Source: Candidatus Saccharimonadales bacterium
Lineage (GTDB): Bacteria > Patescibacteriota > Saccharimonadia > Saccharimonadales > 2-12-FULL-41-12
NCBI GenBank assembly: GCA_036276755.1
Contig: DASUOG010000010.1
Coordinates: forward strand, 155 to 64,154
DNA: 64,000 nt
Reading direction: 5' to 3'
The notes under the pieces were generated by a model. That model ran no database searches. It was not told where the DNA came from and saw nothing but the letters and a program-made list of their open reading frames with translations. Numbering within the stretch: position 1 is the first letter of the stretch; each line of letters starts with the position of its first letter. The translations under genes and the position numbers were made by a program. Shown here in pieces: positions 5,672-51,549 of this stretch.

Positions 5672-6811
5672 ATGGCAAAACGCGGGAAGATTGCCATAAC
5701 GGTTCTGACTATCTTAGTTTTACTGGTAGCCGGTGCATATTTTGCCCGCGATTATATAGAAAGACAATTTTTTAAACCAACCGGATCGAATATCGAAAAC
5801 GGCGTTTCGGTCGCGCCCGGACAAGACATAAAGGTCATCGCCCGTGACCTGACGGTACCCTGGGGACTGGCATTTTTACCGGACGGTACCTTGTTGGTAA
5901 CCGAACGTTCGGGTACTTTGAGGCGTGTCGACGACGACCGCACTTACGAGATAGAAGGCGTGCGGCATATCGGCGAGGGCGGTTTGCTCGGGCTGGCCAT
6001 ACACCCGCGGTTCGACGAAAACCACTGGATTTATCTTTACTTGACTACCGAAGTAGGCGGCAGGCTGGATAACCGCGTGGAACGTTACGAATATGTCGAT
6101 GGAAGTTTGGCTCATCGTACGGTGATAATCAAGAATATCCCGGGTGCTGCGAACCATGACGGCGGTCGGCTGGCTTTCGGACCGGACGGCTACCTGTACA
6201 TCACCACCGGTGATGCCGGAGATGAGAGCTTGGCCCAGGACAGAAGCTCGCTAGCCGGCAAGATTTTGCGGATCACCGATAAGGGTGAAATACCGGATGA
6301 TAATCCTTCGGGCAACGCCGTTTACAGTTACGGCCACCGCAACCCGCAAGGGCTGGCCTGGGACAGTCAGGGCCGGCTGTGGTCTACCGAGCATGGACGT
6401 TCCGGAATCCGGAGTGGTCATGACGAATTGAATCTTATAAAGAAGGACGGGAATTACGGCTGGCCACTGATAGAGGGAGACGAAGTGCGCAGTGGCATGA
6501 TGACTCCAGTGGCCCATTCCGGCTCGGATGAGACTTGGGCGCCGGCAAGTTTGGCGTATCGGAGCGGTTCGCTGTTCTTCGGCGGTCTGCGTGGCGAAAC
6601 GCTTTATCAGGCAGTCATAGCCGGCGAAGAGCAAGTAAGCCTAAAGGCTCATTTAAGAGGAGAATACGGCCGGATCCGTACCGTTGTCTTCGGGCCGGAC
6701 GGCATGATGTATATCACGACTTCGAATACCGACGGCAGGGGAGATCCAAAAGAAGGCGATGACAAAATAATAAGGATAAATCCGGACATATTCGGTATGA
6801 AGGGAGATTAG
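5672..6811 (+). CDS. PQQ-dependent sugar dehydrogenase (soluble glucose/sorbosone dehydrogenase family)
   Basis: 379 aa. N-terminal membrane anchor, then beta-propeller family signatures (..PWGLAFLPDGTLLVTERSGTLRRV.., GLLGLAIHP, HDGGRLAFGPDGYLYITTGD, YGHRNPQGLAWD). Confidence 0.8.
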   Translation: MAKRGKIAITVLTILVLLVAGAYFARDYIERQFFKPTGSNIENGVSVAPGQDIKVIARDLTVPWGLAFLPDGTLLVTERSGTLRRVDDDRTYEIEGVRHIGEGGLLGLAIHPRFDENHWIYLYLTTEVGGRLDNRVERYEYVDGSLAHRTVIIKNIPGAANHDGGRLAFGPDGYLYITTGDAGDESLAQDRSSLAGKILRITDKGEIPDDNPSGNAVYSYGHRNPQGLAWDSQGRLWSTEHGRSGIRSGHDELNLIKKDGNYGWPLIEGDEVRSGMMTPVAHSGSDETWAPASLAYRSGSLFFGGLRGETLYQAVIAGEEQVSLKAHLRGEYGRIRTVVFGPDGMMYITTSNTDGRGDPKEGDDKIIRINPDIFGMKGD

Positions 6812-41354: not shown

Positions 41355-42341
41355 TTATTCGACAGTTTCTAAATGCGCTTGCTTCAAATAATAATTGAAT
41401 CTCACCTTATCCTTTTCGTCTTCTCTGTGAAGGGCGATATTATGGAACATCCTAGCCACGCCTTCTAGATCATCGGCTTCCACTAAGGATTTGAACAGCT
41501 GGTCTTTCATAAATATGCGGGCTTGATTATCTCGAGTTATGGCTCGCGGTATCCCCGGATGTATTACCTCCAGTATGGATGCGATGAAGTATCCTATGAG
41601 TTCTTGTCGGCTTATAGGTTGCCCCTCAGCGACCATTTGTCCGACGTGGTTTTTATACATGGCGGCATAATCCAGACCGGCCATCGACCAACTGCTGGCA
41701 GAGACCTTATTACAGGTTTCTTCTTGTTCGGCTAAATATTGGAAAACAGGATAATGCGCGCTACCTAAAGTAACCAAAGCTGAAACTTCTTCTTTGTTCC
41801 TTAATCTGGGGTGTTCTCTGATTTTGTCTGTAACTGCCGGCCCCAGATTTGTTACCATGATTATATCTCTCAGATTCGCGCCATTTCTCAGATCGACTAT
41901 CGAGTTATAGAATTCTTCTAGATGCCCCTCGTAATCATCAGAACTTGCCGTCGCTAAGTAACTATCAGGATCTCTTGGCAAATCCTCAGCCCGGGCATCA
42001 ATAAAAACTATTGGTTTAAAAGTACCACTTATTTCCTGGATCATTTGTTCGGTATAACCATCAATTTTAGGAGACATCCTTCGTTTTATTTTTTCAAGGC
42101 TTGCGCCACTGGCTTTGGTTATACGTGTATATCTTTCTTGCTCGTCCTCATCCCACGCTACAAGCTCTGGTATGAATATGTCACAATCGTCTAAAAGCTG
42201 GGCTGCGGCATCAAAATGACTGGCATCCGCATGTGGTCCGAACACAAAGTGTACACTGACATTTTCAGGCAGATAGCCTTCGCCTATCTCTGGCATTTCG
42301 TGGTGTTCAATAGGTGTGTGATATGCTTCCGGTGAACTCAT
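41355..42341 (-). CDS. hypothetical protein
   Basis: 328-aa acidic protein between topA and dprA. No family recognised. Confidence 0.55.
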   Translation of the reverse strand: MSSPEAYHTPIEHHEMPEIGEGYLPENVSVHFVFGPHADASHFDAAAQLLDDCDIFIPELVAWDEDEQERYTRITKASGASLEKIKRRMSPKIDGYTEQMIQEISGTFKPIVFIDARAEDLPRDPDSYLATASSDDYEGHLEEFYNSIVDLRNGANLRDIIMVTNLGPAVTDKIREHPRLRNKEEVSALVTLGSAHYPVFQYLAEQEETCNKVSASSWSMAGLDYAAMYKNHVGQMVAEGQPISRQELIGYFIASILEVIHPGIPRAITRDNQARIFMKDQLFKSLVEADDLEGVARMFHNIALHREDEKDKVRFNYYLKQAHLETVE

Positions 42342-43285: not shown

Positions 43286-43314
43286 TTGACATAAAGAAAC
43301 ATTTTTGCTAAAAT
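43286..43314 (+). promoter_or_regulatory. consensus sigma70-type promoter
   Basis: TTGACA at 43286-43291, 17-bp spacer, TAAAAT at 43309-43314. Confidence 0.65.
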
Positions 43315-43320
43315 TGCAAC

Positions 43321-43718
43321 TTGTAAGTCCCGTATATTCGGGGTTTTGCACCTTACACCCTATCCGCCTATGGCGGATGTTAGATTGTTTTAGAGTGCAC
43401 TTCTAAGTGCAGGATGTACCTGGAAGTATTTACCCTCCACTTCTTAGTATATCTCATCCCGCTTATGCGGGGGCTCTAGAACAAGCTAACCCCTTTAACT
43501 ATTGCGGGCGTCTTCGGACGTCATTGCAGTACCCCGTTCGATGCGAGCCTAAACGGTTCCGTGATTGCCTAGCATACATCGGAGACACGGCCCTTTATGG
43601 AGTTTATGGGAGCCAGATGTTTCGCCGGGGTGGGTTGAAGGGTGTTTTTTTGGCTCGAACGGGTTTCGAGCCATGTAATGAACCTCCGGCGGTGCCCACC
43701 CCCTCCGGAGGTTCTTTT
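43321..43718 (+). ncRNA. candidate ~400-nt structured RNA of unknown class
   Basis: Bounded by the promoter above and a 10-bp-stem terminator (GAACCTCCGG..CCGGAGGTTC+TTTT, 43680-43718). Contains many local hairpins, including a C(UUCG)G tetraloop stem at 43506-43521, and a long-range helix 43348-59/43631-43. The overlapping ORFs look non-coding. Confidence 0.5.
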
Positions 43719-43835
43719 CATTGTTAACGACGGTTCCCTAGTGACTACAAAACAGTTCACTGAACTGCCAAGCCTACAGGGTTCTATGTTTGACAAATAC
43801 TAAAATATATTATTATGATATACTAAACAACTATT

Positions 43836-44408
43836 ATGGACAGAGAGACGCTTAAAGGAACCGCTAAAGGCTTTGAAGCCATTGTGTCGCAGTTTGCCTA
43901 TGAAGACGGCGGTTTCTGTGAATTCCCGTTATCTAAGGCCGTATTGACAGAGTTGGACAGGCTTTCCGAAATGAACTCAGAAGAAAAGCTTGAGCTATTT
44001 AACGACAGAACAGCCGATCTTAGAAGGATGGCCGGCGATATCCGCGATGAGGCTCAAGGAAGAAGGATAGAGCTCCCCGGTCTAGGTACTTATCATTTTG
44101 AATTCCATGGCCGCCGCGAAGCAGGCAAAGAAAGTCAGGATGAGGATATTTCTCTTCGGATATCGCGAGTTTTTGATCCTCCTAAAAATCTCAAATCGTC
44201 CCGAACCTTGGCTATTTTAAAAAGAATAAGCGACCGGGAGGCTCCGCTGATCAAGTCGCCGGGCGGACGACTTAATCTAAGAAGGCGGCAAGGATTGCCT
44301 CAGATCGGAACCTTTGCCGTGCTTTTCGACACTCACGAGACAGTTAAAATCATGCATAAGACTCTAGGGTTGGACAAAGAAGCCCAAGTTCAAAAATCCA
44401 AAAGTTGA
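43836..44408 (+). CDS. hypothetical protein
   Basis: 190-aa ORF. TGaTATACT at 43816-43824 lies 11 nt upstream of the ATG. Confidence 0.5.
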   Translation: MDRETLKGTAKGFEAIVSQFAYEDGGFCEFPLSKAVLTELDRLSEMNSEEKLELFNDRTADLRRMAGDIRDEAQGRRIELPGLGTYHFEFHGRREAGKESQDEDISLRISRVFDPPKNLKSSRTLAILKRISDREAPLIKSPGGRLNLRRRQGLPQIGTFAVLFDTHETVKIMHKTLGLDKEAQVQKSKS

Positions 44409-51474: not shown

Positions 51475-51549
51475 GGTCCCATCGTCTAGCGGTTAGGACA
51501 TCAGGTTCTCATCCTGAAAACAGGGGTTCGATTCCCCTTGGGATCACCA
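51475..51549 (+). tRNA. tRNA-Glu (anticodon CUC), CCA encoded
   Basis: Manual cloverleaf. Acceptor GGTCCCA/TGGGATC (one G-U pair). D arm GTCT-AGCGGTTA-GGAC. Anticodon arm TCAGG-TTCTCAT-CCTGA. T arm AGGGG-TTCGATT-CCCCT. Discriminator A plus CCA. Confidence 0.9.

Follow-up and report, generated by a model that had tools for sequence, protein, structure and literature searches.

What kind of element occupies the roughly 400 nt next to dprA in a Saccharibacteria (TM7, Patescibacteria) genome, where a promoter and a terminator bracket a stretch of dense hairpins but no credible ORF? A first-pass annotation of the window (the whole 64,000-nt stretch of DNA analysed, from contig DASUOG010000010.1) had flagged positions 43286-43718 and offered two readings, namely a free-standing non-coding RNA or a very long terminator-controlled leader, while ruling out tmRNA, RNase P, SRP RNA and T-box. 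Our analysis confirms the observation and supports the first of these readings. The near-consensus promoter matches 11 of 12 consensus positions and has a TG extension, all six local hairpins listed earlier are in the sequence, and the plus strand folds to -165.5 kcal/mol (z = -7.3 against dinucleotide shuffles), as opposed to z = -4.4 for the minus strand. A comparable mean z of -7.5 was obtained for 24 homologues. Neither of the tracked open reading frames has a Pfam hit, and across 54 homologues the longest stop-free stretch ranges from 33 to 116 codons with no common frame. One detail of the earlier annotation fails: the proposed long-range helix CACCUUACACCC/GGGUUGAAGGGUG had coordinates off by one (the strands are 43349-43360 and 43632-43644) and shows no covariation beyond shuffles; the G-rich strand instead pairs with CCCUUUAAC, and this pairing does covary. 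The features of the locus, with helices numbered P1 to P12, are as follows.

43286-43314 (+): promoter, with -35 TTGACA (43286-43291), a 17-nt spacer and extended -10 TGCTAAAAT (43306-43314; TAAAAT at 43309-43314); the transcription start is inferred near 43320 (+/-3)
43321-43349 (+): P1, the 5'-terminal hairpin, with outer stem GUAAG/UUUGC and inner stem CCCG/CGGG (43329-43342) enclosing the loop UAUAUU
43348-43361 (+): conserved single-stranded 5' element GCACCUUACACCCU (family consensus GYACCUUAUACCCCC)
43362-43378 (+): P2 hairpin, ATCCGCC-UAU-GGCGGAU, specific in sequence to this lineage
43379-43490 (+): 5' domain, in which the long helix P3 (5' strand 43379-43395, 3' strand 43474-43490) closes a three-way junction
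43396-43411 (+): lineage-specific extra hairpin TGCAC-TTCTAA-GTGCA
43412-43454 (+): P3a/P4 arm, with P4 stem 43423-27/43439-43 and an 11-nt loop at 43428-43438; the invariant UUACCCUCCAC at 43430-43440 contains the anti-Shine-Dalgarno core CCUCC
43458-43471 (+): P5 hairpin CCCGC-UUAU-GCGGG, the variable arm of the junction
43491-43499 (+): P6 5' strand, CCCUUUAAC, pairing with 43634-43642
43500-43627 (+): interior of the 3' domain, with the variable hairpin P7 (about 43503-43529; GGCGTC-TTCG-GACGTC at 43507-43522, with a UUCG loop), P8 (outer CCCCG 43532-36/CGGGG 43626-30; inner GCGAG 43543-47/UUCGC 43621-25) and the internal hairpins P9-P11
43628-43644 (+): invariant G-rich strand GGGUGGGUUGAAGGGUG, of which 43634-42 form the P6 3' strand
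43652-43672 (+): optional hairpin P12, GGCUCGAA-CGGGU-UUCGAGCC (in DNA, GGCTCGAA-CGGGT-TTCGAGCC)
43680-43718 (+): intrinsic terminator, with a 10-bp stem of GAACCTCCGG (43680-43689) and CCGGAGGTTC (43705-43714), the invariant 15-nt loop CGGUGCCCACCCCCU (43690-43704), then UUUU

The unit is conserved as a whole. An nhmmer search finds full-length homologues in 50 or more loci, with E-values down to 1e-39, even though DprA itself is only about 50% identical across these genomes. A profile HMM finds the RNA between pth and dprA in every Saccharibacteria locus that had upstream DNA, about 62, except three divergent or mis-binned ones (L060, L061 and L062, where L numbers denote individual related loci). 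The order der - pth - [RNA, opposite strand] - dprA - topA is conserved across the loci examined, although conserved synteny may have no functional meaning in reduced genomes. The RNA is single-copy in the window. In an alignment of 51 sequences, TTGAC of the promoter is at least 90% conserved and TG-TA---T is invariant. In the 5' element G, ACC and UU are invariant, and the element is retained in the divergent L051 and L064, as is the P4 loop, in which TACCCTCC-C is invariant in 51/51 sequences. Three invariant C-rich elements, the 5' element, the P4 loop UACCCUCCAC (anti-Shine-Dalgarno-like) and the terminator loop, lie in unpaired positions.

In contrast to these elements, the helices vary while remaining paired. 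Covariation supports the three-way-junction 5' domain (P3/P4/P5), the multi-helix 3' domain (P6/P8) and the terminator stem: 96.4% of cells are paired, and 27 pairs carry compensatory changes, against 15.9 +/- 1.7 in shuffles (0 of 500 shuffles reach the observed value) and 9-11 in slid controls. P3 is predicted by RNAalifold; its 18 pairs are 97.8% paired and 10 change on both sides. Its inner half is rewritten compensatorily in L051 and L064, and its outer GUUAG/CUAAC becomes AUAAG/CUUAU in L063. The P4 stem covaries from AAGU/ACUU to ACGU/ACGU and AGGU/ACCU, while P6 shows the compensatory variants CCCUUUAAG/CUUAAAGGG, GCCUUUAAC/GUUGAAGGC and CCCUUUGUC/GACGAAGGG. P8 is 95% paired, with 4 of its 6 pairs changing on both sides (e.g., GCGAG/CUUCGC to GUGAG/CUUCAC and GCAAG/CUUUGC), an internal stem of the 3' domain (alignment columns 542-545/570-573) covaries strongly, and 9 of the 10 terminator stem pairs change on both sides. 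The stem and T-run of the terminator are present in the 51 aligned homologues. The divergent members L029, L033, L041, L049, L076, L051, L064 and L063 rewrite P3 and P6 compensatorily, and a covariance model of the 5' domain recovers them, finding L051 and L064 at E 7e-8 and 1e-11. For a model with the full structure, RNAalifold on the MAFFT alignment recovered only P3, because the variable hairpins are not alignable by sequence. G.U pairs, for example U.G in 44 of 51 sequences in P6, are valid only on the plus strand and fix it as the RNA strand.

The peripheral hairpins are more labile. In P1 the outer GUAA/UUAC is conserved in homologues, whereas the inner stem differs in sequence but stays complementary. 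Most relatives have UUCUAACA...UGUUAGA at the position of P2. The site of the extra hairpin at 43396-43411 tolerates insertions, with 60 to 270 nt in L009, L014 and L019. A hairpin of unrelated sequence occupies the P5 position in nearly all homologues, and P12 is present with unrelated, complementary stems in 31 of the 51 aligned sequences and absent in the rest. Two tertiary pairings are possible but unproven. GYACC of the 5' element could pair with GGUGC of the terminator loop, with 100% of cells paired but variation on one side only. GGGUGGG of the G-rich strand is complementary to CCCACCC of the terminator loop, a possible pseudoknot whose pairs never vary and are hence neither proven nor refuted; in the window its first three G also take part in outer P8. 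In the L029 group GGGUGGG is reduced to GGGG while the loop stays unchanged, and therefore such a pseudoknot cannot be the only reason for the conservation of the loop.

The RNA matches no catalogued family. Scans of all 4227 Rfam 15 models at gathering score and at E<=10, covering 851 nt, the 411-nt RNA alone and nine homologues, returned only chance miRNA/lncRNA fragments, and scans of the viral hairpin loci and of L061/L062 also found nothing. ARAGORN finds only tRNA-Glu in the window and no tmRNA. The earlier exclusions thus stand. The consensus of the 51 sequences lacks the RNase P motifs CR-I (GGAAAGUCC) and CR-V (ACAGAA..GGCUUA), a 5'/3' terminal helix, a tRNA-like end, a tag reading frame and the SRP domain IV motif, and the covariation-supported fold has two multi-helix domains rather than the rod of 6S RNA. 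Only the reverse complement of the terminator loop (GGGUGGGCACCGC) resembles the T-box sequence, and that strand is excluded by the G.U pairs of host and viral stems. In the literature searched, no paper describes such an RNA or its conserved sequences.

Unexpectedly, the terminator loop is not confined to this RNA. It occurs once in the window and once per locus in all 61 loci that carry it, within 467 kb of related DNA, yet the same loop closed by unrelated stems recurs in at least 42 viral contigs from uncultivated phages. Of 120 viral hits, 42 are true hairpins on 40 distinct stems, with 44 of 425 stem pairs being G.U, and the base before the match is C in 41 of 42 true hairpins, against 21 of 73 chance hits. 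These hairpins sit at transcript 5' ends directly after TATAAT boxes, after a capsid gene, and between tRNA genes. The loop variant specific to the L051/L064 clade has its own viral twins. Scans for the P4 loop and the G-rich strand as viral modules gave only chance hits. Attempts to link the viral contigs to a host gave little: cultured phages give no useful blastn match, window proteins have no match in the viral loci, and tetranucleotide similarity is only weak. The GC content of these contigs spans 40-61%, so the partner of the loop may not be specific to Saccharibacteria.

Taken together, window positions ~43320-43718 (+) represent an independent gene for a highly structured, uncatalogued non-coding RNA of about 400 nt, a conclusion in which we have high confidence even though the transcription start, the stability of the RNA and any partner are inferred from sequence alone. 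Its function is a more tentative matter. The strictly conserved bases are held out by covarying helices, and the gene is present almost throughout the examined loci of a lineage with reduced genomes, with housekeeping-grade expression signals. From these points we infer that it most likely acts in trans as a constitutive RNA or ribonucleoprotein scaffold with the loops as recognition sites, a reading we regard as about as likely as not. The P4 loop resembles the anti-Shine-Dalgarno tail of 16S rRNA and could capture either a protein that reads that tail or a G-rich RNA, but this specific mimicry is doubtful: the resemblance is short (ACCCUCC against ACCUCC), and only 12 of 41 window genes have any SD-like motif while many look leaderless, leaving few obvious clients for a role centred on Shine-Dalgarno sequences. 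The 3' hairpin would both terminate and protect the RNA and carry a sequence tag (core UGCCCACCC) read by a cellular partner, either the RNA's own GGGUGGG strand or a host factor; phages would copy this tag at the ends of their own transcripts. A bolder and rather unlikely possibility is that the RNA is the subunit of a previously unknown ribonucleoprotein, or a ribozyme, found throughout Saccharibacteria, with phages having copied the tag onto the 5' ends, 3' ends and intercistronic spacers of their transcripts and the tag sequence tracking the host clade, which would amount to an RNA tag system shared between host and phage.

Among the alternatives, a base-pairing regulatory RNA of the RNAIII/RsaE/RoxS type is unlikely but the least remote. 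Its C-rich unpaired elements, including CCUCC in the P4 loop and the C-rich terminator loop, could pair with G-rich Shine-Dalgarno regions of several mRNAs to repress or activate translation, much as S. aureus RNAIII (about 514 nt) appears to use the C-rich loops of hairpins 7, 13 and 14, the last being its terminator. However, beyond the sparse SD use noted above, no complementary site for any of the three elements was found within the 64-kb window; the invariance of 11-15-nt loops across genomes whose proteins are only about 50% identical and the elaborate multi-junction fold exceed what seed pairing needs; and the same terminator loop works in phage transcripts that have no link to such targets. 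A new catalytic RNA or RNA subunit of an enzyme would account for the invariant junction and loop bases, the covarying helices, the tolerated peripheral insertions and the possible pseudoknots, a pattern resembling that of RNase P, OLE-class and ribozyme-class RNAs, as well as for the wide retention of the RNA. Yet this too is unlikely, since no cleavage or ligation signature is visible, no associated protein gene is conserved next to it, and the evidence is wholly circumstantial. A strongly diverged housekeeping RNA (RNase P RNA, tmRNA, 6S RNA or SRP RNA) would fit the size, the strong promoter and the retention, and CPR RNase P RNAs are often below Rfam thresholds (PMC8172020). Against this, besides the missing hits and motifs, the RNA ends in a terminator hairpin, and all 35 circular CPR genomes of that study, including two Saccharimonadia genomes, had an RF00010-type RNase P RNA once thresholds were lowered, making this option very improbable.

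Cis-acting roles find little support. The RNA promoter lies back to back with dprA, its -35 box being 41 nt from the dprA start codon, and the RNA lies antisense between pth and dprA, which share a strand, so that interference with dprA-topA or with read-through from pth can be envisaged; moreover, the upstream UUCUAAC can pair with the P3 5' strand in competition with the P3 3' strand, which looks switch-like. However, the leader reading is rejected, because the downstream 190-aa gene is unique to this genome (0 of 75 related loci have it) and has its own near-consensus promoter at 43790-43819, and in relatives the RNA is convergent with pth. The RNA has its own terminator and overlaps neither neighboring ORF, and structural covariation and invariant loops are not needed for simple antisense action. 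It is likewise very doubtful that the 3' end of the gene is an attachment site for integrative elements, as tRNA and tmRNA genes are, with the viral hairpins as attP copies. The recurrence of the hairpin in viral contigs and the variable genes just downstream of the RNA in several genomes would favor this idea, but no integrase lies next to the viral hairpins examined, the viral stems differ from one another and from host stems with only the loop being shared, no direct repeat of the RNA's 3' end flanks the 190-aa gene, and the G.U pairs on one strand only point to a function at the RNA level.

Saccharibacteria and other Patescibacteria make up a large share of bacterial diversity and have tiny genomes and few known regulators, but almost nothing is known about their RNA biology; the key genetics and review papers that we checked mention no non-coding RNAs. 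An RNA of this size kept through the lineage, with ribozyme-like conservation, is a strong candidate for a new functional RNA class in organisms that are naturally transformable and for which Tn-seq data exist (PMC10633639). The shared hairpin suggests a form of host-phage RNA mimicry that has not been described, and the conserved promoter, terminator and hairpin could serve as parts for genetic tools.

Comparisons with known systems place these features in context. Like the 3' tail of 16S rRNA (GAUCACCUCCUUA), which is read by mRNAs and by the Era KH domain, the P4 loop has an ACC(C)UCC core, as judged from the E. coli sequence, but it sits in a hairpin loop rather than at a free 3' end and carries one extra C. 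The loop AUCACCCUCCU of a short RNA in L061, L062 and L422 equals the 16S tail plus one C, though the covariance model of the 5' domain does not detect this short form and its homology is unproven. With S. aureus RNAIII and the C-rich-loop sRNAs RsaE/RoxS, it shares the display of C-rich hairpin loops, including that of its own terminator, on a long, highly structured trans-encoded RNA, but there is no sequence or structural homology and no encoded peptide, and its loops are longer. With type A bacterial RNase P RNA, including the diverged CPR forms, it shares a length of about 350-450 nt, housekeeping-grade expression signals and peripheral helices gained and lost between lineages, but it lacks the P4 pseudoknot motifs and the 5'/3' P1 helix, and RF00010/RF00011 give no match. 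Finally, like the orphan large structured RNAs OLE, ROOL, GOLLD, raiA-motif RNA and HEARO, it is restricted to one lineage, combines several junctions and covarying helices with invariant unpaired bases, has its own promoter and terminator, and has no function that can be read from its neighbors. However, none of their models gives a hit, the host phylum differs, at a median of 400 nt it is smaller than OLE, ROOL and GOLLD, and only its 3' hairpin, not the whole RNA, is found in viral contigs.

The stretch at 43286-43718 contains what the first-pass annotation described, namely a near-consensus promoter, a dense series of local hairpins, and an intrinsic terminator in a region without a credible reading frame. 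The promoter is of the sigma-70 type and consists of TTGACA, a 17-nt spacer, and TAAAAT; it matches 11 of 12 consensus positions and has a TG extension. The six local hairpins listed in that annotation are all in the sequence, and a 10-bp GC-rich stem followed by UUUU lies at 43680-43718. The + strand folds to -165.5 kcal/mol (z = -7.3 against dinucleotide shuffles), whereas the - strand gives z = -4.4. Neither of the two ORFs tracked across the region has a Pfam match.

On one side, the neighbors are topA, a 328-aa hypothetical gene, and dprA, all on the - strand, while beyond the element lie a 190-aa hypothetical gene on the + strand and then pth and der on the - strand. The relatives of DprA in species-representative genomes are almost all from Saccharibacteria/Saccharimonadales (TM7; Patescibacteria/CPR) metagenome-assembled genomes, at 45-66% identity. 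Translated searches of these loci showed that the order der - pth - gap - dprA - topA is conserved in about 50 of them. In contrast, the 190-aa gene (43836-44408, +) and the 328-aa gene (41355-42341, -), which flank the RNA-dprA pair, are absent from all 75 related loci and have no Pfam or PHROG match, and the spaces between the RNA and pth and between dprA and topA appear to be variable insertion spots. The element is therefore not a leader for the 190-aa gene, which also has its own near-consensus promoter at 43790-43819 (TTGACA, an 18-nt spacer, and TATGAT); this lies 17 nt before the ATG, so that the leader of that gene would be about 10 nt.

A nucleotide profile search (nhmmer) with the window sequence recovers full-length matches on the expected strand, directly upstream of dprA, in 50 or more loci, with E-values reaching 1e-39. 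This nucleotide-level conservation exceeds that of the flanking protein genes. A profile HMM further finds the element in every Saccharibacteria locus that has upstream DNA, with the exception of the three loci designated L060, L061, and L062. From promoter to terminator, the RNA measures 318-667 nt, with a median of 400. It is single-copy in the window, and its terminator loop occurs exactly once in each of the 61 related loci that carry it. The -35 box and the extended -10 are themselves nearly invariant, but no ORF or reading frame is conserved. Twenty-four homologues have minimum free energy z-scores between -4 and -15, with a mean of -7.5. Deeper relatives lack the 400-nt RNA. At the same pth-dprA position (L061:~1340-1640, - strand; L062:~2260-2590, - strand; and a further locus, L422, - strand, around 1281-1299), they have a shorter RNA of about 240 nt with a TTGACA promoter, a terminator, and the hairpin CCUCA-UCACCCUCC-UGAGG, whose loop equals the 16S anti-SD tail plus one C. 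This short RNA has no Rfam hit and is not detected by a covariance model of the 5' domain of the longer RNA, and homology between the two is hence unproven.

Consensus folding with RNAalifold, anchor-based inspection, and pair counting on an alignment of 51 sequences together give the following model, in window coordinates, although the variable hairpins could not be structurally aligned:

43321-43349 (+), P1, the 5' hairpin.
43348-43361 (+), the conserved 5' single strand GYACCUUAUACCCCC.
43362-43378 (+), P2, a variable hairpin.
43379-95 / 43474-90 (+), P3, a 17-19-bp helix that closes a three-way junction.
43430-43440 (+), the invariant UUACCCUCCAC, carried by the 11-nt loop of the P3a/P4 arm.
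P5 (+), a variable hairpin.
43491-99 / 43634-42 (+), P6, formed by CCCUUUAAC and GUUGAAGGG, which closes a second domain holding P7, P8 (CCCCG..GCGAG / UUCGC..CGGGG), and the internal hairpins.
43652-72 (+), P12, an optional hairpin.
43680-43714 (+), the terminator hairpin.

For the 59 named pairs, 96.4% of cells form standard pairs, and 27 pairs show changes on both sides, as against 15.9 +/- 1.7 in shuffles (0 of 500 reach the observed value) and 9-11 in slid controls. Divergent members of the family add decisive compensatory changes: P6 becomes GCCUUUAAC/GUUGAAGGC, CCCUUUGUC/GACGAAGGG, or CCCUUUAAG/CUUAAAGGG; the inner half of P3 is rewritten in L051 and L064, two loci that form a divergent host clade; outer P3 changes from GUUAG/CUAAC to AUAAG/CUUAU in locus L063; and P4 changes from AAGU/ACUU to ACGU/ACGU and AGGU/ACCU. 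The covariance model of the 5' domain recovers L051 and L064 at E 7e-8 and 1e-11. Frequent G.U pairs fix the + strand as the RNA strand. However, the long-range helix proposed in the first-pass annotation is no better than shuffles. Two possible tertiary pairings, GGGUGGG with CCCACCC of the terminator loop and the 5' GYACC with GGUGC of the same loop, are fully compatible with the data, but they cannot be proven because the bases never vary or vary on one side only.

Insertions of 60-270 nt are tolerated at two peripheral sites, one inside the P3a arm and the other between P3 and P6, in some homologues (L014:2240-2960, L019:2270-2955, L043, and L009), and at least one of them, in L014, looks like a long hairpin extension comparable to the expansion segments of rRNA or RNase P. 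In addition, 48 of 54 family members carry UUCUAAC just upstream of P3 (e.g., L005:2870-2900, L024, L031, L048, and L063). This element can pair with the P3 5' strand GUUAGA in competition with the P3 3' strand CUAAC, and in nine members a second GUUAGA is present, so that both helices can form. The window lacks this element, which may be a switch or a folding intermediate.

Unexpectedly, the terminator hairpin appears to be a portable module. Its 15-nt loop, CGGUGCCCACCCCCU (43690-43704), is invariant in the main clade, and we scanned IMG/VR viral contigs for 14 of its bases. Among the 120 hits, the match is closed by a perfect stem of 7-18 bp in at least 42 contigs (within viral loci L078-L195, e.g., L085:2160-2200, L084, L128, L145, and L149), whereas, from the pairing odds, fewer than one such stem would be expected by chance. 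There are 40 different stem sequences in these 42 hairpins, and 44 of 425 stem pairs are G.U. The base before the match is C in 41 of 42, as against 21 of 73 in the remaining chance hits, and the closing pair is G-C in 35 of 42. These hairpins are intergenic in 36 of 42 cases. They are seen directly after TATAAT boxes at transcript 5' ends (L084, L128, L079, and L121), just after a capsid gene (L085), between structural genes in a group of eight related contigs, and between tandem tRNA genes (L140 and L145). Only 9 of 42 are followed by a T-run, none has a G-rich partner nearby, and none matches an Rfam family. Notably, the divergent host clade (L051:~2640-2700 and L064:~2680-2745) has a different loop, AGGUGAUGCCCACCCUUACCU, and that exact variant also occurs as stem-closed hairpins in five viral contigs (L442, L462, L492, L448, and L502), so that loop variants in host RNAs are mirrored in viral sequences. 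The core shared by the two loops is UGCCCACCC. In contrast, the P4 loop and the G-rich strand are not found as viral modules, and the hosts of these contigs could not be assigned.

These observations establish an independent, conserved, structured RNA gene, but in the absence of expression data its mode of action can only be inferred. The conserved helices hold out invariant unpaired C-rich elements, the gene is present throughout the examined dprA-anchored loci of a lineage with reduced genomes, with the three exceptions noted, and its promoter is of the strength seen for stable RNAs. This pattern is typical of ribonucleoprotein (RNP) or catalytic RNAs rather than of seed-pairing sRNAs. We therefore favor a constitutive trans-acting RNA or RNP scaffold whose loops are recognition sites. 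The P4 loop resembles the anti-SD tail of 16S rRNA (ACC(C)UCC) and could bind a protein that reads this tail or a G-rich RNA. This detail is weak: only 12 of the 41 larger ORFs in the window have any SD-like motif; many have a TATAAT/TAGAAT-like box 5-12 nt before the ATG (e.g., upstream of the ORFs at 5672, 7616, 9053, 14522, and 43836), which suggests widespread leaderless or very short-leader mRNAs; and no complementary sites exist within the window. As for the 3' hairpin, we infer that it terminates transcription and also carries a tag that works outside the RNA, in phage transcripts, so that it must be read by something else in the cell. The loop stays unchanged in the group of members typified by L029, where the internal GGGUGGG is reduced, and this argues that the internal pseudoknot is not its only role.

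Of the alternatives, an RNAIII-like regulator of mRNAs is the least improbable, but we consider it unlikely, given that the conservation pattern is not the one typical of seed-pairing sRNAs. A new ribozyme or enzyme RNA, with which that pattern would be compatible, is more doubtful still. A cis-acting or antisense element for dprA or pth appears remote. The prospect of a diverged version of a known housekeeping RNA is slimmer yet, and least likely of all is an attachment site for integrative elements, since neither an integrase next to the viral hairpins examined nor an att-like repeat supports an attP/attB explanation of the shared hairpins.

The RNA has no detectable relation to any catalogued family. 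Rfam 15 (4227 models) gives nothing at gathering score on the whole 64-kb window apart from one tRNA, a tRNA-Glu(CUC) gene at 51475-51546 that is the only Rfam or ARAGORN hit there; likewise, it gives nothing at E<=10 on 851 nt or on the 411-nt RNA alone, or on nine homologous loci. ARAGORN finds no tmRNA. Full-text searches, which extended to the main Saccharibacteria genetics and perspective papers, found no description of this RNA in a literature collection that was itself incomplete. Its function cannot be assigned to a known system either, and we rate it as a new RNA class. The reverse complement of the terminator loop (GGGUGGGCACCGC; 43690-43704, - strand) resembles the T-box consensus sequence, but we judge this to be a coincidence because Rfam gives no T-box hit and the G.U pairs put the functional strand on the C-rich side. 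The family consensus lacks a tRNA-like end, a tag ORF, and SRP domain IV, and it also lacks the RNase P P4 motifs and terminal helix. CPR RNase P RNAs are known to be diverged (PMC8172020); however, that study reports an RF00010-type RNase P RNA in all 35 of its circular CPR genomes once thresholds were lowered, and two of those genomes are Saccharimonadia.
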